This document shows positions 1 through 29,175 of a stretch of 64,000 bases of DNA, piece after piece. The notes beneath the pieces are model-generated. The model had not been told where the DNA came from. It made no database searches and saw nothing but the letters and a program-made list of their open reading frames with translations. The translations under genes and the position numbers were made by a program. The stretch spans positions 434,001 to 498,000 of the forward strand of contig QPGO01000031.1 in the NCBI GenBank assembly GCA_008632985.1. Direction: 5' to 3'. The first letter of the stretch is position 1; each line of letters opens with the position of its first letter. The stretch is from Psammoneis japonica. Its lineage: Eukaryota.

Positions 1-2022
1 AATTTTTGATTCATCCATTGTGGATTGTACATTTTTATTCTTGATCTCCAAGGCATCTTGGCAGAGACGTTTCAAGTCTGATAATTCCATGACATTGTTG
101 CCGGGCAACGAAGACTGCCATCGTCTCGTAAGTTCAATCCGGTTCAATCGATTCTTTTGCTGAACGACGCGATTTCTGAGGGTAGGAAGAAACGATCGTT
201 TGGGTTGAAAGAAACGAGTCCCACCAAAAGCCAAGACTCGTATTCTATGGGACTGTAGAAGAAACAACATGGAAACGAGACGTAGAAAGAGAAGCAAGGA
301 CTGCGCCATGACGACGGCAACAACACAATAGCGGTATCAACAAGACATGCAATGTGCGATGTATCGTCATACTGAAATTGTCGGTCGTCAAATTCGGACG
401 GACGCCGGATGGACACACGCATCTTCCATCTGCACTGACTGTGCTGTCCGTCTTCATTTCTTTGCTCTCCCGGGCAAACCCACAACGCGGGAAAAACACA
501 GTGAGTCGCGAAGTTTGTCAGGCACACAGGGCCAGTGATCCTCGATCTCGACACTCAGCACCAGATGGCACCGCGTGTTGATGAGCATGAAGCTGGTCAG
601 CACCACATGGGTGCAAAACACACAACGTTGGTCGACGATGGGACACTCTCTGTGCTGCTGGTGCGTTGCTGCCACCCCGAGAGACTCAGAGCCAGTGAGC
701 AGCCTGGATCAGCACATCACATGATTGTCAGTGAACTCCAGCAAGCTCAGATCATGATTTTGGTGCAGACATGCAGACTCAGGTGGGTTGTTTTCCAGCA
801 GCAGTGCAGCACACTTGAGTGCTTCGTGGGCATTGAGAGATTGCAGCTCCTTTGTCAGTGCAGAGGTTGGATGACATGGAGAAAGAGACACATGCCACCA
901 TGCCAGCCAAACAATTGTGGCAGCATCAGAGTGCACGACATCGTAATGTCTGCACACATGACAAAAATGTGTTGCTGTGTTGCAAAATCTGCTTGTCTGC
1001 ACATGGTGGTTTTTGCCATTCAGTCAGTTGTCAATCTCCTGCTGTTCTTCATGTTTGAACACAGGTGCTTTTTAATTTTTGTGCTCAGCCTTTTTCACAA
1101 CTGCTGACGATCTTTAACGACAAGCCAAACATTGCAATTGCATGCAATGAAATTTTCATCATGTGAAGTGTGCACCAATTGTTCAACCAATGACTGTGCT
1201 CCAATTGGCCTGTTCGTCCGCATCGTCCTCTTCATTCCATGTGTCTTGTCCGCTCTCTTGCAAGAATTTCAAACACACATGCCGCTGCCATGTTGGATGT
1301 TTCCTCGTCACTGTTCCAAAAAAGCCACACTGCATTTCTTGCATTTGGGCGAACATCATCGAGAGGAAGAGGTCCCTCGAAACGCAGAATCGTGTCGCTG
1401 CTCCCCTCTTGACGTCGTGTCATCTGCTTCTTTTTCTCTTTCTTCATTTTTCCCATCCTGTTTTTCTCTTCCTTCTTCGTCTTGGCGCTGCCTGTTTTCA
1501 CCGTCTCCGGCATCTTTCCATCCGAATCCTTCTTTTTCATTGATCCTGTCACCGTCACCTTCATCGTGTGTGACTTTGTTTTGGATCCATGTTTCTGACT
1601 TCTCTCTGTGCTGTCCCCATTTCCGAATGTTTCTTTGTGATTGTTCGCATGCGTCACTTGAAGGCACCCATGTGTTCTTCATGCACCTTAACGCGCATGT
1701 AGAAATCCATGTTGTTTTCCAGCACATGCACCCTTTCTCCTGATGCTGTTCCATGCAACATTTTCTTCCATCAATTCTACACTCCGCACTGCCCTTTCCC
1801 GGTGCAATCTCACGCAGGATTTCTCTGGGAGAAGTTGCGTGCGCGTCTGGTGGGTTTTTGTGTGTGAAACTCCAAATCCTGCCAGGCGCGTGTGTGACTT
1901 CTCCCACGCACCACTCTGGTGTGTTTCTGCAGAAACCAGAATTTTGTGACTGACGCACGACCAATCTGGTGAATGCAATGGCGGACCCACGACCACAACA
2001 ATCAGAGCATTAGAAGAAAACC

Positions 2023-2990
2023 ATGTCAGATGAACTCTGTCCATCCGCTGCTCAGGATTTCCATCACCGGATGATGGAGACAGTTGATGGTTTTGTTCAT
2101 GCTGACGCTGCTCGTTGTTCGGAGGAACAGAGAGCAAAGGATGCAAAGGCTGCTGTGTCAAGATCGGTGGAAGCAATGGCAGAAGCCCGTTGTGCCACTG
2201 TGGCTGCAACGACCACACTTGACAGTGCTTTGTTAAATCCAGCAACAACCACTCGCAAATTTAAGCACATCTGTGCGCAGTTGATTGAGTCATCGATCGA
2301 GACACACCATTCAGACAATGACTGTGTTGCCGCAGTGGAAAATTGCAGCGAAGCGGAAATGAGTTTCCAATGCTTTCTTCATGGTGACGCATTTGACGCA
2401 AAAGAATTGGGGCTCCCAATCTCCGTTGTGGACATCAAAAATCAGAGTTGAGGCTGCACATGCTGCACAGCTGTGACTCGACGTTGCTTCTGAGAAGCCT
2501 CAGGGCAAATTCTGACACAGATGCCAACAGAGTGGTGGAGAGGGAGCAATCTGCGATTGACAGCATCAACAAATCCATCCACCGCCGTGCCGTGCCACTC
2601 CTTCGAAGGCAACATCTAACACAGCCGCTGCGCATCCTGAAGGCTGCAATCACATTGCTCCATGGGGCCCTTGACGATTTGAGAAGGAAAGACGTTGCCT
2701 TGCAGTGACAGTGGCAAGCTTTGCATGTTCTGTGGCCAGGCACAGATCAAATGCGGGGAGGGACATGGACCGCGATCTGGGCTGTGGATGAAGAAGCCGT
2801 GGCAAGAGAAAGGGTCCTGCAGTTGGCATCGCAAATCGAGGCACAATTGGTGGCTGTCAACCAGCCTGACCACAGTGCCGACTTTCAGCAGGCAATTGTG
2901 GCTGCCAGGGAACATTTCATGGCGCAGGATGACCAAATGGACCGCGCAAGTGGACACTGCATAGAATCCACGAGGAAGCAATTGCTCTAA
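2023..2990 (+). pseudogene. Unidentified helical ORF fragments inside the transposon
   Basis: ORFs 2023-2451 and 2721-2990 read as protein-like, converge on the transposase 3' end and lack Tyr. No family recognised. Confidence 0.3.
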
Positions 2991-5900
2991 AAATGCACAC
3001 ACTGTGAGCGAAATGACAGATTGAAGCGCGCATCCTGTTTTAGAAACAAATCTGACCAACACTTCCTTCTGTCCTGTGCAGCCCAAACAAATGGGGCCTT
3101 TTCTTGCGCTTCTGCCACTCCTGGACATTCTTCATGAACCAAAACATTGTCCCCAATTGCTTCGACAGGGACAACACGCAACTCAGGTGAGTGCTGAGTC
3201 TTCTCAGGCGTTGACAGCCAGTTGTTTTGTTTGTGATCAAGCTGCCAGCGACTGACCAAGTCTGCATGCTGACACCGTTGCCTCATGGTTCTCTGGTCAG
3301 CTTGACAAGCAGTTGGATGGACAACTGCAAAAATTGATCCTGTGTGTTCCTGTTCAAAGAAACACAGCAAACGGGAGGGGAAACTGTTGATCGCCCTTTT
3401 GTGTGCCAAAGGTCACACAGGCAAAGTCATGCCATGGTCCTTCGCTTTTGAAATCGGGGTGCGCACGGTGCGCATCCCTCCCGTTTGCATTGTAAAACTC
3501 TGTCTTACAAGTCGGGTGTGCATTTTCACTGTCTTCACCAACACAATCCTCCCACTTTTCCGACATGAAGTTTGGCAACACAGGATGAACTTGGCAACGA
3601 GTGTGCTCGCTGTTCCACTCAAACGTCACAGCGCCAATCCCTCGGTTGCAGGTGAGAGTGAACGTGCTTCCTCCCAGCGTGTGATTGTCCATCCTGACTC
3701 TTGATGATTCCTTTTTCCCAGTTGGCAAAATCCAACCATTGGCTGAAATTGCGGCGTTGAGCCTCATTTGGTCCTCCATGCGCGACACGACCTGCTTCAG
3801 AAAACTGTCGAGGTTGCATTGTTGTGTGGTGGATGACGGCAGCTTGAAAAAGTCTTTCAAGAGACACCCCCCCAAGCCTGCGTCAAAGTTCATCGCATGT
3901 TGGCAACAACAAAGAAACACTGGGAGATGGAGTGTTTCATGAAGCTTTCGAAGCTTCCACCCGCATCCTTCTGTTCGCGGGACGAACTGCACTGTCCGGT
4001 CAATGAGGAGACGGATTTTCTTGTTCATTTTCTGAATGGATGAACTGGGAGTTGCGCTTGTGATGGGTGGATCGCCCAGCCTGTGCCATGCGTGGAAGAC
4101 AAGAAGGTCCTCGAGCAATTGAATGAATTGCCGGACGCTGCAGCCGAGTCTTTTCCCTTGCATTTTTTCTTTTTTTGGTTGTCGTCACCATCCTCAGCCT
4201 CACTCTCCTCTTTCTCATCCTCATTTTCGTCCCAGTCACCCTCTTCGGACTCCTCCGACCTTTCATCGTCAGAGTCGTCCAAGTGCTCACTGGGTTGGCA
4301 GCAACTCTCAAAGTTTGCTTTGGGTGTCTTGCGATTCTCTGGAACAATGGGTTCGTCTGTGTCCTCGTCAAGGAAGCATGACTCACATGTGTTTCGTCCC
4401 TCGCTGGTTGACAGGAGAAGGTAGAAAACAAAAGCCATTCCAGCCCAGTGGTGAGAGTTGAGGAAGGCAAGCGACGTTGCTCCTCCTTTGAAGTTTGTTC
4501 GCAAAAAGGATGCTTTGCAAGTTGACTGGTGATTGCTGAAAATCCTTTCCACTGTGCTGTCCACCTCACTTGCGACCACAGGTGTCATGCTGTCTACAAA
4601 TGAATTGATCACCCTTTTCAAGGTGCCGTTTTCAAAGAGATGCATCATGTCGCTTGCTGTCGCAAGGGTGACGCCGCATGGTTGTGCGCCAAAGTCTGCC
4701 TCAAAAAGACAGTTGGCAGGTGCATTGTGTTGCTTGAGGCAATGCAAGATGCCCAACCAGTGCTTCCTTTCTTGGTCTGATCTGTCATCGTCGTTGGCCT
4801 TAGTTTGCACTTGGTGGAGATCCAGTCCTTGGACAAACTCGCATTCAATCCATGGGTCGTCCAGTTTGTTGAAGCCAGTCAGGCAAAAACGACGCAACGT
4901 TGATGACAGTTGTGACCTCCGCATCGTCCGACGAGACAGTCGCCGCTTTTTGCGTCTCCTGTGATGAGAACAATCAGCGGGATCATGTGGAGGTGTCGCA
5001 TCTCATCCCCTCGTCGCACGCATGTTTTCATGCCTCCTTTTCTCATGACTTCCAAAAGTGGCTCCAAAATGACACGCAAGCAAGTGTGGCAGTCTCTTGA
5101 CGAGCGTCCCTTCTCCGCCTTGCGATTGTTTGAGAGATTCTTTGCCGCAGATGACGACATCTTTTCCAAATCCGGGAGATGACCAAGAGGTTTCCAGACA
5201 CTCTTGTCCGACCATTTGTTGAAGGCAACATGCGCAGAGGTCATGATCACTGGTTCTCCGCAATGTGATCCCATCCCTTGTGTCCTGCCAGTCTTGTTGA
5301 GGTAAATGACATTGCACTCGAGAAATTGTTTCTCCGGGTCAGTTGTCCGTTCTTCGTAACTACGCCTGCACCACTCACCTGCCAAAAGGCACTTGTCATC
5401 CGGTCCCTTTGCTTTGTGCTTCCCAAAAGGATTGTCTGGATCGGCCATGTTCTCTCTGCTGCACCACAGGTGAGGATCGAGCAAAAACTGTTCCCAAACC
5501 TTTGTGAAATCCCATCTTGGCACTGACACTCGTTTTGGCAAACCGGTTTTGAAATTTTTGGTTTCTAGAGTGACAGGAATAGACTCGCTGGGTGGAAGAG
5601 GGAAATGCTTGGTTAAGGTGCGCATCAACTCTTTTCTCCTTGGCAGAACTGCACCAAGCTCAATGTTGCTGTCACCAGTGTGCCTCTCAATGAAATCAAC
5701 AATGTGATCGCACAATTCCAGGGGAGCACCACGTGTGTCCATGAGCTTCTTGCACAACTCTACGCAAGCTCCGTCAAGATTTGTCAAAGAGGGAGTAGAA
5801 GCCAAGGCCTCTTCTGCAGGAGCATCACACCTGCTCCCCAAACGTTGATCCTCATCGTCAATGTCCTCTTCCTCCTCCATTGTCACGTCCAACACTGCAG

Positions 5901-6345
5901 CAAAGGATTGACCACCGCCAACATCCAACTTGTTCATTGCCAAAAGTTCAACTCCTTGCATGCTGTGGTTTGATGAAATGGAGGACATGTCGTCCATTCC
6001 GTGCGGCGCGTCATCCAGGGGAGGGGAACAAGGGGCTGCTGCTTGGATCACTCGTTGAAGATCTTGGGAATCTGCTGCGAGTTGATCGCCTGGGATGGGA
6101 TTCGTCATCATCAGAGGACAAAGAGGAAGAACTGCCACTTTCTTCTGGTGGCCCCTCTGTTGTGGCAGGAATGTCGCTTTGATCTGGGACCAGATCTTGG
6201 GTTTGCAACTCTTGGGCAACTGAGCAACACGTCGGTGAGCATCTCCAATGGCAGGCCATTCGCAAAAAACTTTGGTCACAACTGGGACAGAGAAGAGGGT
6301 TTCCGTCCATTGTAAATCAGACAATGTTGACAGGGCCTTCATCAA
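2987..6345 (-). pseudogene. Plavaka-family transposase, frameshifted and hypermutated
   Basis: Consecutive ORFs 4879-6345, 4025-4924, 3354-4163 and 2987-3409 carry motifs I recognise from this family: 'IPLIVLITGDAKSGDCLVGRCGGH', 'DMMHLFENG', 'KLRKLHETLHLP...NFDAG', 'AHRAHPDFKSEGPWHDFACV' (family pattern YRAHP..GPWYD). Confidence 0.75.
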
Positions 6346-6762
6346 GACTCATGCTTGTCGTCCTTGTCTTGTGGATGAGAAGGGGAAAAAAGAACAACAC
6401 GCAAAAAATGGTTGGGAAATTGGCAAACATTACATTGTCTTCCAGATTGGGATGATTCTTGCAGGTGTGACGCATCTGCATTTTGATTTTTTATCTGGCA
6501 TCCACAATGAATGTTGTGCTTTTTATTCACTGTCAAAATGCAGGACATTGTCTCCGTTGAAACGCAATGACAGCCATGTCAAAAAGCAAGTTGGACTGTT
6601 CGTTGTCATGTGCAAATGTGTTTTCAAATTTCAATGTTGCTGACAACAATTTGTGCAATGTCACAGAGAAAAACAGAGTGCCTGGCTGTCTCAACACGAC
6701 CCAAACGACGGTTGCACTGTCGAACAGCACCACTCCTCTCGTTGTTGCCGTGAAAAGATCAA

Positions 6763-7972
6763 GATGTCGTCTCCAGCACAACCGGCAAAGAAGAGAAAGA
6801 AAAATGAGACTGTTGAGCCAATGAGCCCGAGACTTCAGGCAGTGTTGAAGAGAACAGGCACGCAGCAGCGCATGGTGCATTGAAATCAGAAGCAGGGAAG
6901 GTGGCCAGAAATGATCTCTTTCCACAGGTGAAGTTTCTCAGTCCATCTGAGTTGGCAAGCAATGGGAGCGTCTCAATGTTTGTCAAGAAACAGATTGCTG
7001 GTGGCAACATGGACACTTCAAATCGGTCAGGAACTTGGGAGGAATGGGCAAAAAAGGCGGCAAAAGGCAAATTGACAATCGCAGATGTTCGGCTGTTGGG
7101 GCGGAGGCAATGGCACGCAAGTCAAGTGACCAATGTGTGTGATTCGAGAGTTGCGCGCATCTCACAAGAAGATGAAGGTGATGCTTTGTCTGTGTGGGCG
7201 TTGTCACTGAGGAAGAGGGAAAGGAAAAAGAAAAGAAACTCAAGGCGGCAGACAGGAGGAAAAAGAGGAAAAAGTCAAGCCGTGACAAGAATGAAGAGAA
7301 TGACATCCCGTTTGTGCCGACATGGGATCCGTTCAGCCTGGACACTGTCACCGGCGGTAAACGAAGGAACAAGCAGGCATGCAAGTGGTTCTGTGATCAC
7401 ATCCTGCCTCAAACCAAGCAAAAGCAGGCATGGAGCAGCACCGTCAAAACTGGGAACGCACAGGTCTCACAGTTGTTTATGGTCGGTGACGAAGCTTTGG
7501 CACTGTTGGCCATGGAGAGTCATTGGCAGGTGTGGGCATGCAGGAACAAGGAGGAGGCGGTGGAAGAATTGGGTGAGGAAATGGAGCCCGAAGAACAAGG
7601 CCTGCCCCTCGGTGCACGAAGCCAAAGAAACAATGAGTGTCTTGGGGAGACGACGGAATCAATCAGTTCAACGATTTGTGCAAAGAGGTGACGAAAGACA
7701 GAGACTCCAAGGAGGGCAAGGAGTTTGAAAAGTGGCATGCAGAGATCAAGAAAAGCGAGTGCGAGAAGTCCGGAGAAGCAAAAAAGAAGAAAAAGAAAGC
7801 ACCGGCCGGTGATGCAGACAAGGTGAAGGCAATGAACAGCCCAATGGTGGAGAGCAGCAGGGATGATGACAGCAACAACGATGAGCAGGAGGAAGGCGCA
7901 AAAGGCAAAACGGATGACAGAGGAGACGAGTCCGATGGAGACGAGTCCGATGATGATCGTCAGCTTGGTTGA
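6763..7972 (+). pseudogene. Transposon accessory ORF, divergent from the transposase, frameshifted
   Basis: 'FMVGDEALALLAMESHW' and 'SWGDDGINQFNDLCKEVTKDR' match the DEAFALL..EN.W / W..EGI..FN.L...V..DR pattern of accessory ORFs in such elements. Acidic and Lys-rich tails. Confidence 0.55.
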
Positions 7973-9460
7973 GAGAGTTGCAGCAAGAAAATGTGCACAC
8001 AGTTTACACAGCACTCGGTCATTGCACTGCAGACGCAACAAGGGATTGACTTAACCAATGAAATGCTTTTCTCGTTTAAGATGGTGTTTGCGAAAATTGA
8101 CAAACCAAGGATTGTGTGGAAATGCAACCACGCACTGGCATGTGGCAACAAGGTGGAGGCAGACACAGTGATGTGGACACAGTGAAAAACAGCGTGCATG
8201 ATTCTCAACGAGTCATTGCAATGTTGGTGTGGCAAACTTGTGACCAGAGGTTGGCCTTTCATCACATGACAATGATGTTTTGCAACATTTTGATGAATCA
8301 TCATCATGCAAATCTACACATTTTTGACATTTCGTGCACTCTGATGAGGAGGCTCCCATTCTGGTTGTTGACAAGCAGCTGGCTGCTCGTCTGGTTTCAC
8401 GTGCTGAACAAAGCTTTGGCCACTTGCCTTGTGTGCTGCCTGGTTGTGCAGGCCCTTCTTGAGACTGGCCACCCATTCAGGAGAGGAGCAGCTCAACACT
8501 GCGGCCCTGCTGCAGCCTTGGTTCCAGCCACATTGGTGCACTGCTGAGCTGACCCCCAGCGGCGCGCAGCATTTCTTCCTGTGGGCAGGGCACACAAGGC
8601 CAAGACTTGACTCTGTTGTGAACACCTTTCATTTTGGCAGGTTCCAGAAGCTCCAGGTGACAGGCAATGCATGAGTGCAATCATCAAATGTGGCCAACTT
8701 CACTGTCCCACAAACTTCTTCTTCAAGCTTGGTTTTTTCCAAAGCTGAGGTGCAAGCACACACAAGAATTTTTTGTGCAGCCGTGCTCCAATTTGTTTTG
8801 TGGGTTTCCAAATGGGAGTTTCAGGAAAGGTGTTAAGCTGCGATTGATGGATTTTTGGTTTCTCAGGAAAGGTGGTGAGCCCTGCTTGATGGATTTTTGG
8901 TTTCTCACCTGGGGCTGGAACAAGCAAGCCTTTCTTTGGAGTTTTGATGTGCAACCACTTGTGCCTGTGATGTCAAGTTTGGATTCAAGGAGTTGACTTT
9001 TGGAGTGGTCACAAGCAATGCTGTTCATGTCCTCACAACCAAAAAGTGAGAGCAGCCAGACTCTTGTTGCGCTTTGCTCTCATTCTGTGACAGCGTGCAG
9101 AGCAGCAGAAAACAGCCAAGCTGCAAATGCCAGCCACAGCAGCAGGGCGGTGATGAGGAAGAGTGCAAAAGAGTGCATGGTGTTAAAAAAACAGGTGGAG
9201 GGGGGCGCACAAGGAGATGGAAGATGCACTCCAAATCTTCTTTGCTGTTTGCAGTGAAGGGGGGGTTCAAGAGCGGCGGCTGATGACATCGCACCAAATT
9301 TGGCGCGCTTCAATTTTCGCGAGCTGCACCTCTCGCCTGGCTGCCCGTCTTGGATCTTCTGGGCGATGCAGTGTTGATGGCCTCATCATTCTTCCGGTCG
9401 GTATCTTCTATCATAGGGCCCTCCCTGCAGACAGTGCATGCTGTGTAACTTTCAGGACCG

Positions 9461-9910
9461 ATGATTTTGATAATTCGTAATGGTGTCGTTATGATGTTGA
9501 TTGGTTTAATTTACGGTGCCGCTGTCCACGATGCTCCGTACCCTATGCTTGCCGTTGGTACTCATCAACAAATGGTGTTAAACGGCATGTACATTCTCTT
9601 GTTGGGAATGCTTATCGAATTGAATATTTCACGTATCGGTGAGGGCGGTTGGAAATGGGCGATTGTAAAGATAACTTGTGGACCCTATATATGGGTAATG
9701 GTGGTTTTTGAGGTGCTGACCTCCCACTATGGATGTAAAGAATTCCTCAAGATACGGGCCGAAAGCGCAAATGCTCCGGGCTGTAATGCGACATTGGAAA
9801 AGGTATCAGAGGTTGGAATAGTCTCTGCCGGTGTTGGGCTGCTACTTGCAACAGCGATTGTTTTGTATGGTACATTCTGTTCTCCACAAAGGATTGAAAA
9901 GAAGGAATAG
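9461..9910 (+). CDS. Small 4-TM membrane protein, styrene-oxide isomerase (StyC)-like
   Basis: Four hydrophobic segments. 'PYPMLAVGTHQQMVLNG' resembles the StyC-family AH....LNG motif. Normal TpA content. Confidence 0.55.
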   Translation: MILIIRNGVVMMLIGLIYGAAVHDAPYPMLAVGTHQQMVLNGMYILLLGMLIELNISRIGEGGWKWAIVKITCGPYIWVMVVFEVLTSHYGCKEFLKIRAESANAPGCNATLEKVSEVGIVSAGVGLLLATAIVLYGTFCSPQRIEKKE

Positions 9911-10384
9911 CTTTTCTTGGCTTGGATGAGCGTGTTGATGCTGGCTAGCTAGTGCACTCTTAGGGTGCACTTTCTTGGTTGTGGGTTCGTGGCTTATAAG
10001 GACACCTTTTGATTTTTTCAGAAGCAGAACTAGAGAATATTCGTGCAAAGCAGGTCAAGGAGCTAAGAGACAACTGTACGAAGCACTTCGGTAGTCGTAG
10101 AGCTAGCCAGAGATGTAGGTATGCATGTTGATCTATGTAAAAACAAAAGTACAATAAATAGCCAACACTGATGAAGGTTGGCGAACAAATCCGGAATCAG
10201 TGAAAGAACCTAGACGCCTTCCGGTGCAAGTGACGCGGGGGCGAATTCTTCTTCCTCTTCCAATAATGGATCCAACGATCCCACCATTTATTTCGCGACT
10301 TTAACATCGAGAGGTTGTACATTCGGCCGCGCTAGCTACTCCTACTTCACGCTTTTGCTTGAGGAGAACCTCAACATCTCATGT

Positions 10385-11200: not shown

Positions 11201-11378
11201 GTTCGACCGGTGTTCTCAACATCTGGCGTGGAGTCACTTTGAGCCTTTTGACATTCATTCCGTGTAGTGTGATAACTTGTTTGTGTTCTGATTTTTATGT
11301 CCCGGATCGTGTTTTTTGCGCGAATGGGTCGCGTGTCGGCGCCAGTCACGCCACGCAGGTCATGAGCTGGCTCTTTTT

Positions 11379-16009: not shown

Positions 16010-16605
16010 ACGTGTGAATTTATGTGTACCGTAGCAGGCTGCTTGTCTCAAAGTGCTATTTTCGAAGACCATAATGCCATTTGCGAAACTACAAAAGACG
16101 AGCAGAAGCTGCAATAAGAGAAAAGTAAAGCAGAGTTGCCGCCCGGGAACTGAATTGTCGCAAAACATTGTAACGCATTGGCGTCGTTCCAGCATTTGCA
16201 TCTAGCTATAATTCATCCTGACAAGATATGTTCATTGCTTTAAAGTAGTTACTGGGCGTCAGCAAGAAGACTCTAGCTAGCGAGAGACACTCGACCAGCC
16301 TTCCTGAATCGTGTTGGAATTGTGCCAAGCCAGCTTGCCTCTCTTAAAAACGAGTAGCACATCGGCTGGTCATTGTGTGGGGGAAGAAAATCAAAAGTGG
16401 AATGCAACTTTCTGTCCGATCTTTTTACACTTCTCCGACCATCCTGTGGGACCAGAACCATAAAGTTCCTTCGTGTCTGAATAAATATTTTGAAAAAGAT
16501 TCTTTTGTTGCGGCGATCTTTTGACACTTCTCCGCGAACGGCGATGAACACACGGCGCTTTACGTATTGGTGTCACAAGATTCATTGCGGTTATTGCGAT
16601 AAGCG

Positions 16606-18232: not shown

Positions 18233-18414
18233 TCGCCCGGTTAGTATTATGAGTGAGGTGCAAACTTGTCAATCAATCTATGTTAATGTGTAAATAGTCT
18301 TAGTGCATTTTTCTTGAGTTGCTGTGTGGTAGACCAAACCTTCGTTTGGCTCCTCGAGTCGTACAGCACTACTTTAAAGCCGTCATGCTTTTGATGCTGC
18401 TTTTCGTTTTGCTT

Positions 18415-20085
18415 TTATTTCTCATCTTTCGAATCATCAATGGGTTCAAGGCCGCTATGGGACGAATTGCCTGAGCTGTTACTTTCTTGTTTTGTTATCT
18501 CAGTATTTTCATCAAGTGGTGCGAAGAATTCAAAAGTACTAGCAATGGCATCGCTTGGCCGCGACGACCGCTGCATTTTGCATTTTTGCTTGGAATAACC
18601 CGTGGAGACACTCGAAATCAAAACCGTATGTGGCGATAAAGAGTCATAGTGTGGCAGCGGCTTGTCAGCTATACTTTTGATCGAGGCATTGGGCTCTGGA
18701 GTTCTTGGCATAATGTGAACGTCATGAAACATATGCATCTCAACTGACTCAATATGAAGGCACGGTCGGAATGCTGCATCGGAATGCCATACAATGTCTT
18801 CAATGCGATACGATTGCAAAGCCTGAAAGGACCCAGACACTTTTGTGCAGCGACAGCGAATACTAGAAGTTGAGAATGCCTGTGCAATGCAACAATCGTA
18901 GTCTTTTGACTTCACTTACTCAGTGGGTCGAGGGCTTCAAACACGCAGATTACTTCCGACACATTGTCCTCGAAATATTTGCGCAAGACCTCCATATCAT
19001 GAATCGGCTCTAGTTCTCGCTTCATTTCTTCACAGTCTTTGTCCATCAATTCCAAATGAGTTCCAATACGCGGATATTCACCTTTTTCCTCTACAATTTT
19101 CTGAAAATTGACATGTTTCATCCAGCGCTCATAGTCTCCGTATGATCACCACACACTGGGCATATCACCTCCTCTCTGCTTGCAGTCGGCGAGTCTGACT
19201 GTCTCAGCACGAGTCCTGATTGCAACACAGGTGGTAGGCTCGTATCATGTGGATGGAGCAGACTGTAAAGGTCGATATGGTGAGAAATTACTGTTGGCCA
19301 ACTGCAAAAGAGCATTGCACCAAGTTCATCATCAGGTTGCAAAATTCTAAGAGGTCTAGGAACGGGACGGTCCTTCAAAACAACATACAACCGAACATGT
19401 GCTTCCACCACAGGGTGCTCTGCGTCAGCGTCGTAGATCCGAACTTGGAACCTCACTTGGTCCGACTCGGGATGATATGATACAACTGCCTTCGACGAAA
19501 AGACGACCTGATTCCCTCGAGCAGCGCATTTGGAAATCCCAGAATACAGAAAAGCAAAAAGAAATGCATTGAACAGCATACTCCAGACCATCTGGAAGTA
19601 GATGACGACCTGCAAAGCTCGGCAGTTCTCAAAAAAGGCATTGGTGCCGCTCGGTTACCCGTATCCTACGGTGGTACAAGTTTCGAGAGAAAAGGCGAAA
19701 GAGGCGCCAAACTGAATGGGATCGCCCGCCGCTCCCAGCCCACACTCTACTTCAGGATCTCCGTGATCGACGGCTTCGTAAACAAGAGCGAAAAATATAA
19801 GCATCAGAGTCCAAACGATGAGAAGACCAAGCATTGATTGATAAATGGGTAAACGCAATAGGACGTGGAACATATCATGGCGAATGAGCTTAAATATCTG
19901 CCAGCCAAGGTTGTGTTTCACAGAGATCCGGTTTTGGGACTGCTTGAAAGGCAGAGTTCGGGGAACTAGTCGTGGCAGATCCGGCATCTCTGTTTCCTCA
20001 AGCGTACCGCATGGTGATCAGGTGGAGGTGGTGCCAGATCCATGAATGCACCAGAGGAATCATGCCTCTTCGTCGGTTCCGTCAT
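18415..20085 (-). pseudogene. Inward-rectifier (Kir-like) potassium channel, disrupted
   Basis: Pore motif 'FAFSLETCTTVGYG' and cytoplasmic 'VVFSSKAVV', 'VVEAHVRL', 'ISHHID..S.L', 'FQALQSY'. In-frame TAA right after GYG (~19655), frameshifts at ~19145 and ~19990, intron ~18841-18917. Confidence 0.75.
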
Positions 20086-21645
20086 CGTGTAATTTTTAGG
20101 ATTGATAGATGATGTCTTGTCACTTTCTGTCTTCCTGGGTTCTCGTTGCAGCGGTTTGCTTCTAAAAATTTCTCGGAGTTTTCTTCCTGGTTTTCCTTCC
20201 TTTCTTTTATTGACTAATTTATAAAATGATTCAGAAATGCTTTTTATTAATGTCCATATGCGTGTGTAACCTCATCGTTTCGCAATGAGAACACACCAAA
20301 ATGGGCACATCCCATCTGCTCAGATGCGGGGAGCTCGCTTTGTCCTCGCTCTGCCGTCAGGCGGCAACAGATGCTGCAATCTTGACAACAACTGAAACAA
20401 GACTTGGTTTGAGGCCTGCCCCTGCGCATCCCAGTGCAACTGCTCGTCCTCCGGAGAGTTCCCAGCTCCATGCTCCCGCCAACTGCCCTCTCAACTGCAG
20501 CCAACGTGCGACTTCTCTCACCCGGGGTTCAAACAAAAAAAGTCAAGATGAAAGCGATTGGCGTGCAGCTGATTGGGCCACCCAAGAGCTGGTGGACACT
20601 TGCTGTGCTCTCGCACGTGTGGACGAATGCAGCCAAAACTTGTGTTCCTCTGCGGAAATCATTTTTTAAGAACAATCAAAACAAACTGTGAAAGTGAGTC
20701 AAGTGCCTGCACAAATGAAATGAAAGCAAGGATGCATGCTGTCAACCCAAGTGGCAGCTGGAGTGAGACCAGCTCAAAGACCTGGGCACACCCAGCTGAG
20801 TCAGCTCATGTGCTGCCAGCTGGAAGCCAGCTGTTGTGTCTGAGGACAGCAACATTCCCAAAGAGAGTGCAATCAGCCAAAGCTTGAAACCCTCAAATCA
20901 GGCAGCTTTAACTTGCAGCCAGTTTTCTTGGATGAAGTCATGAATGAAGTTGCAGCAATGAGCTGGGCTGATGCCACCAAGCTCTTGACCAAGTGCTGCA
21001 AGCTCCTCGCGCCTTTGGAGAGCCAGTGCGCTGACAGCAACCACGGCTTGTGTGCATTTCACCTTTTCATCTCTTGTTCACCAACACACTTCCAGCTGCC
21101 AAGCTCCTCATGCCCAAATGTCTGCAGTCACAAACTTCACAGGAGAGCTGCTTCCCCCACTCTGTGTTGCAACAGCTTGCAGCAAAAAGGTCAGCACTGT
21201 CAATCAAGAGCAAGTTCCTCAGCAAGGTGGTTGTGCCTGTCAACAAGGCACCTTTTCCATCAACCCCAGAGCCCAGCATCGAGGCCCACTTGTGTGCAGT
21301 CAAAGACTCACGTGTGCGAGTGGCGCTGCTTCACTTGCCAGCATCACCAGCATGGCATGTGCGCAGGTGTGCTGACAGCCATTTGTGTGGGAAACAAACC
21401 TGCCAAATGCCCCTCTTGGATGCCCCCCCCCCCCCCCCCCGATTGTGCGCTGCAGCTCCCAGCCACAGCATCCCCATGTGGGGTGAAGCACCAGCCGCAA
21501 GACACTGCAAATCTGCACCCGTTGCGCCGGGTGAGATGCCTCAAATCTTGTCATTGCAAAGTGCCCCACAAATGGTTCCACTGACTGGGTTCATGCTTCT
21601 ATTTTCATTTGCGTCAAACACTCGAGTTGCTCTCTTGGAGACTTG

Positions 21646-21830
21646 TGTCAGTCCACCTGTCGTACGATGGACAGACTGTGTGGATGATGACTGGACCATT
21701 TGGACAGATGAGCAGATCTCTCTGAGATCTGCCTCTCACTTTCTCATCCACTGGTGCTCGTGCTGTCACAGTCCCAGTGCTTGGGGAGTCTTTCATGCCT
21801 CCATCATCATTGACCTTCAGCATTCTGTCA
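21646..21830 (+). repeat. 5' LTR (185 bp)
   Basis: Direct repeat of 28600-28786; starts and ends TGTCA. Confidence 0.95.
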
Positions 21831-22029
21831 GGTTGTGGCCTTGCGCTGTGCCACAGAACTCTGGCAAAGCTTTCCATCTTGATTCATTTGTTTTGTGAGC
21901 CGACCGAGCAAGCCTCGTCATCTGTTCCAACAACAATTTTTTTCTCGTTTTCCCGGCATTTTTCACGATCGTAGAAACACACCAGATTTCTGCGTGTGCA
22001 TGACCAAAAATGCCCTCTCCAAGTGAAAC

Positions 22030-25000
22030 CATGGCATCTCCCGACCTTGCAAAGGCCGCTCAACGTCCATCACAGAGATCCATTGTGAATTTCAAGAACA
22101 TGCAACGACACCTCATTTCCATGCGACCTTGAACAAGACACACACGGATTCAATGTTTGATCTGGACCCGTTCTTTGATGATCCAGAACATGCTCAAGAA
22201 AGATTTTGTTGACACATTTCGAGTTCACCTCATCAACATGGCGTTCCCACCTTGCACGGTTCATCCTGCAGACATGCAGCCTGTCAAGACGATTGTGGAT
22301 GAAGCTGCGTTCCGCATTGTTGACTCTGCCAGGCCTCGTGCAACCCGCATGATGCCCGCATCTCTCTCATCGATCATCAAGACCAATCTCCGGAACCACA
22401 ATCAAATCACATGTGTTGTCATCTCTACACACCACATCAACGTTGACCCCGACATGATGTGGAACTGTGAGGATTGGAAGGAGTTCTCCCTCATGCCCTG
22501 CCTGCAGAACCCACAGCCCACACCATCATCTACGACTGGTTCAGGACCCACAACAGCTGGTGTGAATGACTCAATCACGCCCTCAACAAGTTTGTGTCAA
22601 GCCACGCTCCGCCTTCTGCTGCCTCTGGCAAGACCTCTGGAACCCCTGCAACTTCCACAGCATCCAAACATCTCTTCAATCCCAACACCTGCAAAGAAAG
22701 TGGTGCCGTCACCCTGAAGAGCTCTCTGGTCCCTTGTGACATGGATTCCGCCACTGTGTTGATGCATCAGACCGCATCATTCTCAATGATGGTGCCCCAT
22801 TCATCATGAGCTCAGCCCCCAACCAGAAGATGCCATTCAGAGAACCTCGATCTGCCATGACGATTCTCCCGCTGGGACACGTGCATGGCACCAAAATTTT
22901 CAACGTCACTCCTTTGACTCGGGACACTGTGTGCATCCTTTGTGGTGCTTTCCAAGGACCACGGTGGTGAGAAGGGTTTTGAGATTGGCAATGGCAAAGA
23001 TGATGACTCACCCCAACGAATGTATGTTCATTGTAAAGAAGCACAAAGTTCCCTTCACAAGACACTTTCCAAGTCGGACATGTTCCCCAAGAACAGCAAG
23101 TGTCATCGGATTGTTGCATCATGCTGTGGCAACGGCTGCAAGGCTCTCAAGCAAATTGTCTGTGAGAACCACCCAGCTTTCACCACGAAGCTGCTGGGTT
23201 GGTAGATTCCCACCCTGTTCAAGGAAATCTGTCCTTGACGGACTGTCACTTGCGTTTCAAGGATTTTCTACAGCTGCGCGCTTGTGTCTTTAATGTGGAC
23301 TCTACGTTGGATGACTCTCGAGAGATGACTGTTTTCATCAAGAACACCAAATGCTCCAAGTTCTCACCCCATGCTGCTGGAGATGAAAGGAAGTCCCCTG
23401 CTGTGCTCAAGAAGTGCACGGATGCACAGATTGTTGAGACCCCATCTGACTTCCTTTGTCAGTCGGATGGCCATCTCTTGCAACTCACACGAATCCTCGC
23501 AATCCACACCGCACATGGGATCGACACCCAGGGGACACACATTGCACAACTGCCGATGTCAATTCCTTGACTGTCCCGGATGTCCCTCCCATTGCAGAGG
23601 ACACTGATGAGCCACCTTCACCGATCACTCCCCCGAGGACACCTTTGACTCCCTCTGTGCTGAATTGCATGACCTTGACATGCCTTCTGCAGATGAAGAT
23701 CGTCTTCTTCATCATGTTTGCTCTGCTTTGGCACACAAACTCAAGGTTGCTCCCACAGAGGCCTCCAAGAAACCATGCCTTGTTTGTTCTGAAGAACACT
23801 TGTTCCACGAGTGTCCTGTCTTGAATGACAACCCGCCATCAAGGGCTTCCACACACGTTTTTGTCAATTCTTGAAGTGTGAAGCGGCCATGCGAGCCTCT
23901 GGATTTCAAGGACCACAAGGTTTGTTGCCGCCTCATCAAGGACCATCTGATTCTCGCCCAGTGCTGGTGTCCAGTCTCCGGATTTTCAATCGGGACATCG
24001 CAGCTGGTTTTGGATCTCCGACGCAGCCCATTCTCTGCCCACCAAGACAAGACCAATGTCAGCGGGATGACTGTGAAAGAGGGACCAAACGTCTCGTCAT
24101 CTGCCGCTGTGCTGCCTCTTTCTTTGACGACTGATGTGGACTGCATCCCTGACTCGAAGGTCTCTCCTGACACCATCAAGTTGCCTGATGATGATCCTGT
24201 TTCTCCCTGATGGCACATTGGAGACTGATCCTGTTCTGGACTCTTTAGAACAGGGGAGGGAAGATTTAGAGGAATGTGAATTTGCCAAGTTTGTTGATCT
24301 TGCCTGTGATGACATTGCTGTTGAGGACGGTTTTGCCACAGTGAATTCTGTCCGCGTTTCCCCACTTGTCCCACTGCACGATGATGATTGGATCCACCAG
24401 ATCTGCTCCGCACTGCCTGCGCTGTCAATGGTGTCAAGTTTGCCCCAAATGAGCAATGTGCTCAACTTGACACTGGTGTGCTGATGTTGCTTGTGCTGGA
24501 GATTGTGATCTCCTGCATCAATGCCAGGCATTTGCTCCTTCCGCCCCGTGCCCGCTTGCTGCCAATCCAGCTCTTGGACATGAAGCTGTCCCAGTCGGCT
24601 TTGGATGTCTTCGCATCCCTGCGGAGAACTCCGATGGCCATGTTGAGATTCGTGCATGTCACCACCCCACAGCTCCAATCCACCTTGGTTGATGAGCATT
24701 TGCTGCTCCGTCAGAATGGCGCCCGTCACATGGATTGCAATGTTGATTGCATCCTCAAGTTCCATGATCTTGGCACTTGCAAGTTTGTTGTGCACGGCAT
24801 CATTTGCGCAAGAGTCAGGATGTTGTTGTTCATGGGAAACTGATCAATGGCAAGTGTCACACTCACCCACTCATTCTCCCAGAATCACATGATGAGCCAG
24901 ACGCATCAATCGAGCGCCTCAAGGCAAGTGACCCCTCCTTTGCGGATGAATGTGAAGCAGTCTCAGCCCACATGATTGAAACACATCGTGAACACCAACA

Positions 25001-28000
25001 TGATGCTCTCTGCATGGAACGAAAGTTGATCCCCTGAGCATGTCAAGACATCCCGTTTGAGCAGCACGCCAAGAAGAACACTCCCGTTCAATCCCTCAAG
25101 GCTGGTGCGGAACGCCTTTTATGGCATCAACGTCTTGGACACCCCAGTGATCACTGTCTTTGCCATGCTCACGAACATGTTGATGGTGTCCCCAAGTTTG
25201 CACATGGCACATCCCCCCTTGACACTTGCCCCACATGCATCCGGGCCAAACAGATGAAGGAACCTGCTGGACCCAATGCTGCTTTGACAGCCACCCAACC
25301 CCACCAAGGTCTCACCGTAGACTTTTCTTTTTCTGGTCTCCGCTCCAGGAACACTGAGCATGTCAAAGACTGTGTTGGGTTGAATGGTGAGACGTGTTGG
25401 ATCACCGTTTATGATCATGCAACGAAGCACCTCCATGGTGCGACTCGTGTCTCAAAGGCCACCCCCTTGAATTGGATTCGCCACTTTCTGGAGGAGCACT
25501 CGCCAAAATGTCCTGATGAACATGTTTTTCTGGATCAAGGAGGTGAACTGTGTGACAATCCGGTGGTTCGGCGACTCTTTGAGGATGACTTTCATTGTGC
25601 AATTTGTCCCACTGGCAAAGATGCTTCAAATCAGAGTGGCCCAGTTGAACGGAGTCATTTGACCATTGCCAATGCCATTCGGGCGATGCTTGTCAGTGCC
25701 AATTTACCCGTCAAGTTCTGGCCCCATGCTTTCCATCACTTTGTTCGGATCAAGAATGCTGTGCCATCCCGGGGGCAGACTGCTGCTCCGATTGCACTTG
25801 CTGCTGGTCGGAAGGATGACTTTTGGAACTTCCACACATTTGGTTGTCGCGTTTGGGTGCGTGCTTCGAATCACCGTCCGGCAAAATTCCGGACCGTCTC
25901 ACGCAAAGGGATTTTCTTGGGATGCCTCCCGGATGCCACCAAGAACATTTTATGGCATGACACCGAGACATCGCGTGTCAAGCTGGCCAAGCACATCAGA
26001 TGTGATGAGGGGATGAATGATTTACCCCACGAATCTATTCCCCTGAATGTTGTTCATTTGCAACGTGCTCAGGCTGGTGATGCCCTCCCTGCCGACACTG
26101 AAGAGACCACTGTGGATGAGCTCCACTTTCATGGTAACCCTTTCGCCAAGACCATCACACGCATCATGAAAGGACCTTTCACGGATTCCACTTTTGGCTT
26201 TTCATTGGCTGTGGATGATCCACACCAACGTGTTTTTGTCTTGGACATTAAATGTGGTTCCCCCGCTGCTCGTCTCTTCTCAAACTTGAAGGCAACCCAC
26301 AACAAGATCAAAGGCACACACACAGTGTCGATTGATCATCAACCAGTTTTTACCCATGACGATGCTGTCAAGCATTTCCAGCAGTTGCGTGAGTCTGGCA
26401 AGACACATTTTGAAATTGAATTCATGCCAGAACGTTGCTTGGACTCTCAGGCTCTCCAACGTGCTCTGATGGAACATGACGTGTTCTCCCCCACCCCGGA
26501 CCCTGACGATGAGCATGTCCCGGAGCTTGCACAAGCCGACACACGTGCCATTGCTGCAGTGCGCCATCCGGGTGCTGATTTTGAAGCCATTGACAACAAC
26601 GACGTCCCACCACCTGTCCATGTTGACCGTGACAATGGTGTCATCCATGTCCGTGCGACATCCTCCCATGCAATTGCCCCAGAGCAACAAGCCTTGGGCA
26701 CCTTCACTCGCCATCGACTCAAGAAAATGGACACTTGGCCTGAATGGCATGCGGGCGAATTTAAACAACTTGACCAGTTTCATGAGTTGGGCATGTTTGG
26801 TGCTCCCATCAAACGTCCGAAGGACGCAGTTGCACTGAGACCACACTGGCAATGTGACCTCAAACATGATGGTGCGCGACGCTCTCGTCAGTGTTGTGAC
26901 GGATCCCCTCGTGCTGCATCTGTTCTCCACCGTCTTTGTTCAACATGCTCCTCCTGTGTTGAGCAACCTGTCCAATGGATGTTCTTTGCCCTGGCAGCTA
27001 CGATGGGTTGTCTGGTGCATGGCGGTGATGCCCGCGATGCCTGTGCCCATTCTCCCCGCGCCCATCACATCCTGTCTGCGTTGCCATTGACAATGCATGT
27101 GCGACTTGGCACAAGTCTCGCTTTGGAAAGGAATTGGACAGGAGCACGGCACTTCCCGTGCAACATGCTCTTCAAGGACACCCAGAAGCCGGCGTGCTCT
27201 GGGAGAATCACATTGATGGTGTCTCATCTGATGTGAATCTTTTGTTCCGGAACACTGCTCATGACAAATGCATCTGCTCTGCTGCATTTGAAGGACACAA
27301 AATTTTGCTCCTTCGACAGGTCGATGACTTCGCCATTGCTTGCCCCGAGGAGTCCATTGCCAGGACGATCTATGACAGGATCGGCAAAGCCCTTCAATTG
27401 GACTCAGAAACTGCTCCCCCTTTCAAGCACCTTAGCCTCTTGGAGGAATTCAATGGCGTGGACATCCATCAGCATGATGATTCGATTGGCATTGCCATCC
27501 ACAATTACATTGATCGTGTTTGCCTCTCACACGGTTGGTCTGCACCAAGTGATGACGAACTGCTTGATGACTCCAAGGTGACTCCGATTCCGGTGGACTC
27601 CATTTGAGATCTTTACACTGACATTGGTCCTGCTGAAGGTACACTGGAACATGTGGAGCTGCATCAAGCTGCTGGATTTGGATGCCGTGCCCTCCTTGGT
27701 GAGCTGTTGTGTGCGTGTGTTGTCTGTCGACTCGATGTTGGCTGTGCTGTCACTGCCCTTTCCAAGTTCTCCACTTGCCCTGTGGTGGCACATTGTGATG
27801 CACTCAAGGGTGCATGCAAGCACATCTCCGATGTGCCAAACATTGGGAATTGAACTGCAAGAAATCTAAACGTGACCCGAGCCTCCCTGCCTGTCCGTTT
27901 GAACGCTTGAGCCCCAGCCCGTCTCTCCCGTCATTCCCCACTCCTGAGCATGACCATCAACTTGTTGCCTTCCTTGATGCTGCATGCGGAAATGATCTTC

Positions 28001-28430
28001 GTAATCAACGTTCTACGACGGGACATGCTTGCATGTTGGCTGGTGTGCTGCTGTCTCCTTTCGTTGCAAAACGCAGTCGGTGACCGCTGCGAGTTCCACA
28101 GAAGCGGAATTCCATGCTGCTGGCACCACCGCCAAGCATGTTCTTCACCTTCACCATGTGCTGCATGACCTTGGTTACTCCCAAATGAAGCCAACCCCCT
28201 TGCATGTTGACAACAAATTGGCCATCAAGATCATCAATCATTCGATTCCGACCGAGCGTTCGTGCCACATTGAGACTCAGTTTTTCGCGATTCAACAATG
28301 GAAGGAAGCGGGCAAGATTGTCGCTGGACATGTCCCTGGCATTGTCAACCCCAGCGATGACCTTGCCAAGGCTCTTGGGTGGGTGCTCCACGCTCGCCAT
28401 GCTCGACACATGATGGGACACTGCCGTTGA
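22030..28430 (+). pseudogene. Copia gag-pol, broken
   Basis: Zn knuckle 'CLVCSEEHLFHEC' (~23775), protease DTG(A) (~24465), 'LWHQRLGH..CPTC', integrase 'DQGGEL..GPVER', RT 'ALQGHPE..RQVDD', RNase H 'DAA.GND..SSTEAEF..DN..HIE..NPSDDLAK'. Confidence 0.9.
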
Positions 28431-28599
28431 TGTTTTTTCTGCGGTGGCCTCCCCTGCTGTGCATTGCCCCGTCGTTTGATGCGTGTTGGGCTTGGACACC
28501 TTTGGTGTCCTCTTTCTGGTCGCTCTGTTTACATCATCCCCATTCTTGTTTTGATCTGCACTGTCTTCCATTTTTGAGACATTGCAGATCAGGGGAGGG

Positions 28600-28786
28600 T
28601 GTCAGTCCACCTGTCGTGCGATGGACAGACTGTGTGTGGATGATGACCGGACCATTCAGACAGACGAGCAGATCTCTCTGAGATCTGCCTCTCACTTTCT
28701 CATCTACTGGCACTCGTGTTATCACAGTCCCAGTGCTTGGGGAGTCTTTCACACCTCTGTCATCATTGACTTTCGGCATTCTGTCA
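28600..28786 (+). repeat. 3' LTR (187 bp)
   Basis: Direct repeat of 21646-21830; preceded by a polypurine tract. Confidence 0.95.
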
Positions 28787-29175
28787 ACTTGTCGTCATCT
28801 TGTGGCAAAAGCACGCGCCAACCAAAGAAAAGAGAGAAGACAAGGTGCACATTTTCAAAATTGTAGGCGCTTTTCCATTCAACATTCTTCTCATCAGTCC
28901 ACAACACATTGAGAGACCTGTGACAAATCTAGAGGGCTCCTTTCACACCATGTGCGACGGCGGAGGTTTGGCCTGGGGCACAGGAGAAGTGCTCCTGTGT
29001 TTTCCTGGGCTTTTGCGCGAGAGAACAAAAAATTCGCAAGGACAACGGACTCGGACACGTGAAGTTGCGACAACGACAACCACACAAAATTCCAAAAATA
29101 TGCCACCACAAAAGCGAGACACGGCACTTTGAATTTGCGGAGCCAACTACACTGACCCTACTAAAGTTATTTTCC

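Follow-up and report, generated by a model that had tools for sequence, protein, structure and literature searches.

Loss of TpA from four tracts of a diatom contig follows a graded flank rule and suggests a TpA-specific mutator of transposon-derived DNA

The diatom Psammoneis japonica carries, on contig QPGO01000031.1 of GenBank assembly GCA_008632985.1, a stretch of 64,000 nucleotides (positions 434,001 to 498,000 of the forward strand, hereafter the window) in which the dinucleotide TpA has almost vanished from four blocks, one of them enclosing a Copia-type long terminal repeat (LTR) retrotransposon. This locus raises the question of what removes TpA so selectively from such DNA and why the few TpA sites left stand in a narrow set of sequence contexts. 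A first-pass annotation, made from the letters alone, had claimed that survivors lie in TTA, TAA, TCTA or TAGA. This claim was followed up here with a survey of observed/expected (O/E) dinucleotide ratios in 1-kb steps, single TpA positions then being used to set the borders of four tracts:

371-9401, no strand: tract T1, TpA-depleted, 38 TpA in 9,031 bp
11382-12635, no strand: tract T2, TpA-depleted, 2 TpA in 1,254 bp, both TTA
20268-29098, no strand: tract T3, TpA-depleted, 41 TpA in 8,831 bp
33133-36189, no strand: tract T4, TpA-depleted, 5 TpA in 3,057 bp, all TTTA

The whole window holds 1,713 TpA, with an O/E of about 0.4-0.9 per 1-kb step across most of its length (about 0.55 in its ordinary parts) and of 0.02-0.15 in the fully depleted kilobases of the four blocks. 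In the depleted tracts, the O/E of CA+TG rises up to 1.43-1.94 and that of CpG falls to 0.18-0.77 (0.18-0.26 in T4), while the AT dinucleotide stays at 0.54-1.24 in tract kilobases, the loss being limited to TpA. The edges are sharp, spanning at most 200 bp at 200-bp resolution, and GC content is 0.47-0.53 in the tracts versus 0.43-0.55 elsewhere. Summed, the four tracts comprise 22,173 bp with 86 TpA (3.9/kb), to be compared with a background set of 37,602 bp with 1,459 TpA (38.8/kb), which consists of positions 13701-20100, 29300-32900 and 36400-64000; the zones 1-370, 9402-11381, 12636-13700, 20101-20267, 29099-29299, 32901-33132 and 36190-36399 belong to neither set.

The context rule is obeyed throughout the tracts. 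For positions 380-9300, some 35-40 TpA with about one exception had been estimated by eye, and 38 are counted in T1, 37 of which fit, the exception being position 5361 (acTAcg); moreover, the five example sites then named are found no more than one base from where they had been placed (1115, 1778, 2962, 5566 and 5796). For the Copia element, about 35 sites with some three exceptions had been claimed, and T3 contains 41 with five, since 27640 (ggTAca) and 28864 (tgTAgg) join the exceptions already listed (21663, 23023 and 26999), leaving 36/41 that fit. The two tracts that had been left unused follow the rule as well (2/2 in T2 and 5/5 in T4). Altogether, TTA, TAA, TCTA and TAGA hold 80 of the 86 survivors versus 713 of the 1,459 background TpA (49%), so that the survivor contexts do not equal the background distribution (Fisher p=9.6e-18). 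When only VTAB sites are considered (V, any base except T; B, any base except A), the comparison of TCTA/TAGA with the rest still gives p=4.9e-13. Since genic TpA may mislead as a reference, two alternative baselines were drawn from the TpA contexts of non-depleted Copia relatives in metagenomes, where the share of other contexts is 0.556 or 0.587, and these yield p=3e-21 and 6e-24. Applied within the tracts to the other 15 dinucleotides, the same flank rule holds for fractions of 0.26-0.73, near background values, versus 0.93 for TA; therefore, flank composition is not the cause. In a survival model, the context terms add a likelihood-ratio statistic of 70.5 with 3 degrees of freedom (df).

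The rule is graded rather than absolute, and in this respect the original wording has to be narrowed: the enrichment of the named contexts stands, whereas absolute sparing and a general sparing of TAA do not. With background density taken as the starting point, survival amounts to 0.60 for TTAA, 0.27 for TCTA/TAGA, 0.13 for one-sided TTA/TAA and 0.014 for all other contexts, so that "spared" means lost more slowly, not immune. A single ATAAB/VTTAT site is kept where the background has 139, and this survival of 0.012 equals that of unprotected sites. Among half-sites, enrichment in the survivors falls from TAAA (3.06) and TAGA (2.96) through TAAC (1.9) and TAAG (1.68) to TAAT (0.87), TAGG (0.17) and TATA (0), and five-base survival falls from TTAAB (0.59) through GTAGA (0.41), GTAAA (0.31), ATAAA (0.165), GTAAB (0.12) and GTAGB (0.036) to ATAAB (0.012). 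Thus, protection is strongest where A-A or G-A comes directly after TA, and it is abolished by an A preceding TA (on the opposite strand, a T after the adenine). The best substrates are ATAT (none kept, as against the equivalent of 112 background sites), ATAC/GTAT (survival 0.007) and GTAC (0.027). This graded dependence extends over approximately 4-5 bases and is found in four separate tracts.

The direction in which the lost sites changed can be read from the Copia element, which within T3 is preceded by a flank of about 1.4 kb (20268-21644) and followed by about 300 bp past its 3' LTR. Its features are the following:

21645-21836, + strand: Copia 5' LTR, aligned core, pairs with 28599-28792
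28599-28792, + strand: Copia 3' LTR, aligned core, pairs with 21645-21836
24494-28500, + strand: Copia coding region for gag-pre-integrase, integrase and reverse transcriptase, in several frames, recognised by domain matches and homologues

The Copia protein has 37 database homologues, the named ones all from diatoms (Cylindrotheca, Nitzschia and Fragilaria). When the open reading frame (ORF) 25254-27236 was aligned with 17 homologues picked from the 37, all of the 10 conserved Tyr columns proved to be changed, three to His (CAT), six to Cys (TGT/TGC) and one to Phe, while 64-100% of the conserved columns of other residue types were kept. Over 462 conserved codon columns obtained by tblastn with the 37 homologues, there are 35 sites where a CA->TA or TG->TA reversion restores the consensus, and 23 of these inferred TA->CA/TG sites are Tyr codons (Tyr->Cys 14, Tyr->His 9, p=0.40), the two strands being hit about equally. 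Arg->His and Arg->Trp changes are present too and point to ordinary CpG decay alongside the TpA loss.

The LTRs date these changes. Both LTRs of one element are copied from a single template and are identical at insertion, and here 174/194 aligned columns remain identical. Of the 13 difference events, four are TG<->CA doublets (at 21701, 21755, 21796 and 21802), three are TA-vs-TG/CA sites, three are of CpG type, two are C/T and one is a GG/AC doublet, a 2-bp indel being listed in addition. Where one LTR has TG and the other CA, an ancestral TA must therefore have been struck independently, on different strands, after insertion. The process at this element thus runs from TpA to TpG or CpA, is restricted to TpA and acts at the DNA level after insertion.

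Whether TpA sites have been retained or regenerated can be judged from the survivors in the Copia coding region. At a dozen or so sites, the surviving TA codons match the conserved residue, while survivor 27433 is a derived TA, for which other genomic copies and homologues indicate G; most of these survivors are thus ancestral, retained rather than new. The Tyr codons offer a comparison free of any baseline, with four TTAY codons (Y, pyrimidine) mutated and 2-3 retained as against 19 VTAY codons mutated and one retained (TCTAT), although the one-sided Fisher p of 0.04 or 0.12 hangs on one ambiguous site and the retained Tyr sites are called from just 4-8 homologues. The balance of 4-mer products versus background likewise goes in the expected direction, GCAC/GTGC being up 2.18-fold and TCAA/TTGA and ACAA only 1.07-1.13-fold, but it is confounded by CpG decay and unknown original composition and serves as supporting colour only.

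The depletion is not confined to the element, as it continues for 1.4 kb on the upstream side and for about 300 bp on the downstream side. One public run that contains the stretch as contigs (X1) was used to judge copy number, with single-copy defined at a likeness of at least 80%. The depth of X1 is 52-56 in 20268-21329 and 52-61 across this segment and 35136-36189, both single-copy (single-copy reference about 55-63), as compared with 800-2,600 in the Copia interior and 6,300 in the LTR bin. Both single-copy segments are nonetheless depleted, although they may be old repeats whose copies have diverged beyond recognition. Two consequences follow. Firstly, the LTR doublets together with the depleted flanks imply that edited retroelement RNA or complementary DNA (cDNA) was not the source. 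Secondly, the depleted flanks imply that the target is a chromosomal domain and not the repeat alone. The run reproduces the tract sequence with 0-6 differences in the contig pieces listed; it shows the Copia element to be multi-copy, and its reads have approximately 2,245 differing places. As a separate observation, in 20268-21612, part of which is single-copy, X1 differs from the window at no fewer than nine listed places, one of them a TA->CA change at the TTAA site 20909; these differences look like strain-level polymorphism and are too few to demonstrate ongoing activity. A run of about 18 C lies at about 21430-21447, just upstream of the Copia 5' LTR.

The remaining tracts are less easily classified, and no retroelement signature was seen in T1, T2 or T4 in the domain scans of window ORFs. 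T1 appears to be degraded mobile-element DNA; its minus-strand ORF 4879-6348 (489 amino acids, aa) has a Plavaka transposase match at E=9e-4, below the curated cutoff, and one database homologue. T2 is bordered by two paralogues of a WW-domain gene (10354-11116 and 13191-13860), the aligned blocks of which are 76-88% identical. Both paralogues show a TpA density near normal and, therefore, that duplication did not attract the mutator.

Metagenomes show the same process outside this genome. Scanning of metagenome contigs with the Copia alignment gave 80 loci, with TpA O/E from 0.01 to 0.81: the locus L076 lies at 0.01 (4 TpA in 5,501 bp), a dozen lie at 0.15-0.45, and the range continues up to 0.6-0.8. 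A single family, defined at an identity of at least 80%, accounts for 59/80 loci, and the window's element falls outside it. With the earlier state taken as the majority of at least three relatives having a TpA O/E of at least 0.55, of the 114 ancestral TA in L076, 60 have become TG and 43 CA (103 in total) and none survives, L072 has 113 mutated and 19 retained, and the less depleted L074 has 92 retained, nine turned to CA and five to TG. Expressed per adenine, the frequency of A>G in L076 is 0.478 after T versus 0.056-0.132 after other bases, and in six partly mutated loci (L072, L020, L034, L046, L049 and L060, with the near-duplicates L030, L036, L045 and L050 removed) it is 0.318 versus 0.024-0.056. 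The TpA-specific process is real, and field populations show it at every stage. CpG O/E is similar (0.54-0.86) whether a member of the family is mutated or not and, therefore, methylation by itself does not entail the TpA process. Among copies that pass as normal (TpA O/E 0.55-0.7), A>G at TpA reaches 0.084 versus 0.030-0.040, a twofold excess, with a CA+TG O/E of 1.2-1.4, and the family seems to have spread while bearing earlier light hits. A third small family (L033, L052 and L077 versus L043) offers too few sites for a flank rule.

The metagenome family has flank preferences of its own. Retention in the six loci is highest for CTAG (0.73) and CTAA/TTAG (0.61) and lowest for ATAT (0.13), GTAC (0.15) and ATAC/GTAT (0.16); the base 3' of the hit adenine is C in 151 cases, T in 136, G in 67 and A in 40, and late survivors are mostly CTA. 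The products TG and CA stand at 118:61 at YTAY and at 12:31 at RTAR (R, purine), from which it follows that the hit rates of the two adenines track their own-strand neighbours. In a joint likelihood, the relative rate by +1 base is 1.0 for T, 1.05 for C, 0.36 for A and 0.29 for G (likelihood-ratio statistic 66, p=3e-14), and the -2 base adds a further 18.4 (p=4e-4), with relative rates of 1.0 for A, 0.76 for G, 0.69 for T and 0.48 for C. The window and the metagenome family agree in that R-TA-Y is most susceptible and a 3' purine is generally protective, the protective purine context being A and G-A in the window and G in the metagenome family, a difference that may reflect related mutators with different fine specificity or a window rule that is partly non-enzymatic. 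Strand-coordinated runs of products were not found in the metagenome loci (187 runs versus 193.5 expected). As a side observation, TG exceeds CA overall (229:165, p=0.0015; L076, L072, L020, L034, L046, L049 and L060, with the ORF on the + strand), which means more hits to sense-strand adenines; this excess largely tracks the YTAY/RTAR composition, and a transcription-strand effect is not clear at RTAY sites (78:60, p=0.15).

A further question is whether the flanks in the window are read strand by strand or in the duplex. The first-pass annotation had argued from the reverse-complement symmetry of the spared set to recognition of a duplex motif or of DNA shape, an argument that turns out to be invalid: TpA is palindromic, a hit to either of its adenines removes it, and hence the symmetry of the survivor set is automatic in any strand-symmetric process. 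In a per-adenine rate model of the window survivors, the negative log-likelihood is -45.07 with no context and an identical -80.32 each with the -2 base only and with the +1 base only, while both flanks together give -82.72, not significantly better (p=0.19). Because of the symmetry, the -2 and +1 effects are inseparable from the window survivors alone. When half-sites are grouped into six classes, the fit of a multiplicative model (deviance 23.8, 15 df, p=0.07) is better than that of an additive, strand-independent one (34.1, p=0.003), and in nine one-sided window sites with a known product the protective base lies 3' of the hit adenine in five and 5' of it in four. These results hint weakly that in the window one flank slows both adenines, as a duplex or shape reading would have it. 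In the related metagenome family, reading is strand-wise.

The interpretation preferred here, with a probability of roughly 0.7, is that a TpA-specific A:T->G:C mutator, probably an adenine deaminase, works in place on silenced transposon-derived diatom DNA. The earlier preference for an enzyme-like footprint over drift or GC-biased conversion is borne out, in that only TpA is lost (AT O/E 0.54-1.24), the products are CA and TG and the context dependence is graded. Under the proposed mechanism, the tracts would be transposon-derived, probably silenced diatom DNA, and the mutator would act on the chromosome, turning TpA into TpG or CpA on either strand until about 90% of TpA is gone. The survivors would be slow substrates: R-TA-Y sites (ATAT, ATAC/GTAT and GTAC) are nearly wiped out, and TTAA, TAAA/TTTA and TAGA/TCTA are lost several-fold more slowly. 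The flank rule would then express the mutator's own sequence preference, and a polynucleotide deaminase, drawn to foreign or silenced DNA, would probably convert the adenine to inosine. Short neighbour motifs are typical of polynucleotide deaminases. Low CpG, which the tracts also have, usually marks cytosine methylation of transposons in diatoms, and recruitment via silent chromatin would be plausible.

Several known systems can be set beside this process. In mutation-accumulation lines of Bigelowiella natans, 231 of 302 mutations fell in integrated giant-virus and virophage regions, all but one being A->G/T->C on TpA and occurring in some lines only, at a rate raised about 1000-fold, de novo and episodic; the genome holds 124 TpA-poor, CpA+TpG-rich clusters, enriched for reverse-transcriptase and DDE-transposase domains, and an ADAT2-like deaminase is the candidate (Mettrop et al., bioRxiv 10.64898/2026.01.13.699255). 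On that account, B. natans resembles the window in that TpA changes only to TpG/CpA, in that the changes are confined to foreign or mobile regions, including single-copy DNA, in the long-term trace of TpA-poor, CpA+TpG-rich clusters and in the adenine deaminase proposed. Here, too, changes are almost only A->G/T->C on TpA, as seen in 9/10 Tyr columns turned to His or Cys, in L076 and in the LTR doublets, and they form discrete mobile or foreign regions that are TpA-poor and CpA+TpG-rich, namely four sharp tracts with a Copia element inside. The two differ in host, a diatom (Stramenopiles) as against a rhizarian chlorarachniophyte, in targets (an LTR retrotransposon and repeat tracts at O/E 0.02-0.15, as against 0.45 in the B. 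natans virus region), in the CpG loss that accompanies TpA loss here and in the flank rule described here; de novo events were measured in B. natans, while the present case is known from standing sequence alone. The words "context", "flanking" and "trinucleotide" and the string "neighbo" do not occur in the main text of the preprint. In full-text literature searches, DNA-level TpA hypermutation was found only for B. natans, and no diatom report was found; one diatom paper containing the word "hypermutation" (SPLASH) was set aside, since there it refers to antibodies.

Repeat-induced point mutation (RIP) of ascomycete fungi changes C->T at CpA and so creates TpA, requires duplication and a premeiotic stage, and lowers GC. 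It resembles the present process in its in-place, dinucleotide-specific transitions on both strands of mobile DNA and in the skewed dinucleotide signature and dead coding frames that result. However, the window is its mirror image, with A:T->G:C changes that destroy TpA and raise GC: TpA has been lost and CpA/TpG gained, instead of the C:G->T:A changes at CpA that enrich TpA. In addition, RIP needs duplicates; here the Copia element is multi-copy, parts that are single-copy in X1 but may be old, diverged repeats are depleted, and the WW-domain paralogues (76-88%) are untouched. Among deaminases, ADAR and TadA/ADAT2-ADAT3 convert A to inosine on RNA, with U/T favoured 5' of the edited adenine and neighbour preferences of one to two bases; the A->G change with a 5' T is shared, while their substrate is RNA and the one affected here is chromosomal DNA. 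The APOBEC3 enzymes are cytosine deaminases of single-stranded DNA that restrict retroelements on cDNA before integration and leave strand-coordinated changes, and DddA is a deaminase of double-stranded DNA that reads 5'-TC through the minor groove (PMC10442228). Both share with the window a change of DNA within short fixed neighbour motifs and differ from it in their cytosine target, and APOBEC3 differs further, since the action seen here came after insertion and strand runs are lacking in the metagenome family (187 versus 193.5).

Several points weigh against the preferred interpretation. Even the spared classes are mostly lost, the survival of 0.13 at one-sided TTA/TAA, like all such figures, presupposing that the original TpA contexts resembled those of the background or of unmutated relatives, and one TTAGA and one TCTAT site are mutated in both LTR copies. 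The window's spared set is not reproduced in the six metagenome loci, where 66/178 sites are retained inside it versus 97/297 outside (p=0.37), and the family protects TAG/CTA more than TAA; the flank rule is thus lineage-specific or partly due to something besides a shared enzyme. The count of 187 runs versus 193.5 leaves processive single-strand action unsupported. Furthermore, a scan of 48 window ORFs revealed neither a deaminase nor a TET/JBP domain, and sequence alone cannot tell adenine deamination from a thymine-directed lesion.

This last point leads to the rival explanation that fares best, although it is unlikely, namely that the thymine of TpA is the substrate, for instance through TET/JBP-type oxidation to 5-hydroxymethyl- or 5-formyl-uracil that is miscopied as C, which would turn TA into CA, or into TG if the opposite strand is hit, and would make the flank rule one of R-T-A around the thymine. 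All sequence results fit it equally, since a T->C change reads as A->G on the complementary strand. Such oxidised thymines promote T->C mutations, and some transposon families carry TET/JBP genes, to which may be added the sub-threshold Plavaka-type transposase match in T1. However, the ORFs scanned in the window include no TET/JBP domain, the sole experimental precedent proposes an ADAT2-like deaminase as a candidate, and near-complete conversion by almost pure transitions would be more typical of deamination.

It is decidedly unlikely that the flank rule belongs to something other than the mutator, such as proteins or nucleosomes bound on A/T-rich steps, a protective modification in TAA/TAGA, or TpA regenerated by C->T changes. 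Such an origin would accommodate the spared set that differs between the window and the metagenome family, the derived TA at 27433 and flank fits that are only moderate (deviance 23.8, 15 df, p=0.07). However, the same rule recurs in four unrelated tracts, most Copia coding survivors match the conserved residue and hence have been retained, and the choice between TG and CA in the metagenomes tracks own-strand neighbours, which an enzyme preference predicts and site protection does not.

Editing before integration, in which an ADAR- or ADAT-like enzyme acts on retroelement RNA or cDNA and A->G is fixed by reverse transcription, is very improbable. The best-studied tract is indeed a retrotransposon, and, as pointed out in the Discussion of the Bigelowiella preprint, ADAR-type editing likewise gives A->G and favours a 5' U/T. 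Nevertheless, editing fixed by retrotransposition would leave the LTRs alike and the flanks untouched, and this locus contradicts it with four TG<->CA doublets between the LTRs and with depletion of the upstream 1.4 kb, of about 300 bp on the downstream side and of parts that are single-copy in X1; T1, T2 and T4 lack a retroelement signature in the ORFs scanned, and the Tyr->Cys (14) and Tyr->His (9) changes place hits about equally on both strands (p=0.40). Finally, that no dedicated system exists, with neutral decay, GC-biased gene conversion, selection against UpA/TpA or an assembly artefact responsible, is scarcely credible, for although the ordinary window parts are also TpA-poor (O/E about 0.55) and tract GC is slightly raised (0.47-0.53 vs 0.43-0.55), it is contradicted by a loss about 10-fold past background that affects TpA only (AT O/E 0.54-1.24), by sharp tract borders (at most 200 bp), by products that are only CA and TG, by the independent run X1 giving the same tract sequence (0-6 differences in the pieces listed) and by the same signature in copies from unrelated metagenome assemblies.

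What is new here is that the same kind of process, close to saturation on transposons, is seen in a second and distantly related lineage, and that flank rules are described for the first time. To our knowledge, fungal RIP, which works on cytosine, is the only well-understood genome defence among those that alter mobile DNA one base at a time. Diatoms are among the most important marine primary producers, in this diatom the signature is nearly complete, and metagenomes show the process at every stage in related field elements. A bolder proposal, tentative and somewhat short of an even chance, is that a diatom enzyme deaminates chromosomal adenine at TpA in silenced transposon domains with a lineage-tunable footprint of 4-5 bases, V-TA-B in the window with TAAA/TAGA resistant, and R-TA-Y in a related benthic lineage with TAG resistant. 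If true, this would, together with Bigelowiella, make such an "adenine RIP" a widespread defence of the Stramenopiles-Alveolata-Rhizaria (SAR) supergroup, from which natural DNA adenine editors that need no guide could be drawn. The flank rules provide a biochemical fingerprint for testing candidate deaminases. Present adenine base editors rest on laboratory-evolved TadA, and a natural DNA adenine deaminase would interest the base-editing field.

The process also affects annotation. As TAA and TAG are erased and TGA alone is left, the tracts fill with long false open frames and gene callers over-predict; as Tyr turns into His or Cys, homology searches for the elements fail. Both effects bias diatom annotation and repeat dating. 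In T1, 34 stop-to-stop frames of at least 110 aa are present, and the frames of T1, T3 and T4 lie on both strands, overlap and almost never have a family match. T1 also contains a 42-bp tandem duplication (8821-8904, 86% identical). The element in T4 has terminal direct repeats at 33114-33244 and 34837-34967, about 1.7 kb apart and 71% identical, and in the area of 33950-34970 many joints in the X1 contigs leave out 75-200 bp or all of the 1.7-1.8 kb, which suggests that this element occurs elsewhere in the genome as solo-repeat and internally repetitive (minisatellite-like) variants.

Among the neighbouring genes, an intron-free zuotin-type gene lies at 29059-30969, the named relatives of which are diatoms, at most 54% identical, and include Thalassiosira, Chaetoceros, Cyclotella, Mayamaea and Pseudo-nitzschia. 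In X2, another run from this sample, the contigs found cover only 29147-32881 of the stretch compared (29147-31023 and 31201-32881); they are collinear with the zuotin-type and TraB-family genes, which appear intron-free there. Farther on, long frames at 37907-39307 and 40794-42305 have no family match, and the minus strand of 54432-58544 carries an open frame of 1,370 aa with only a sub-threshold Myb-like match.

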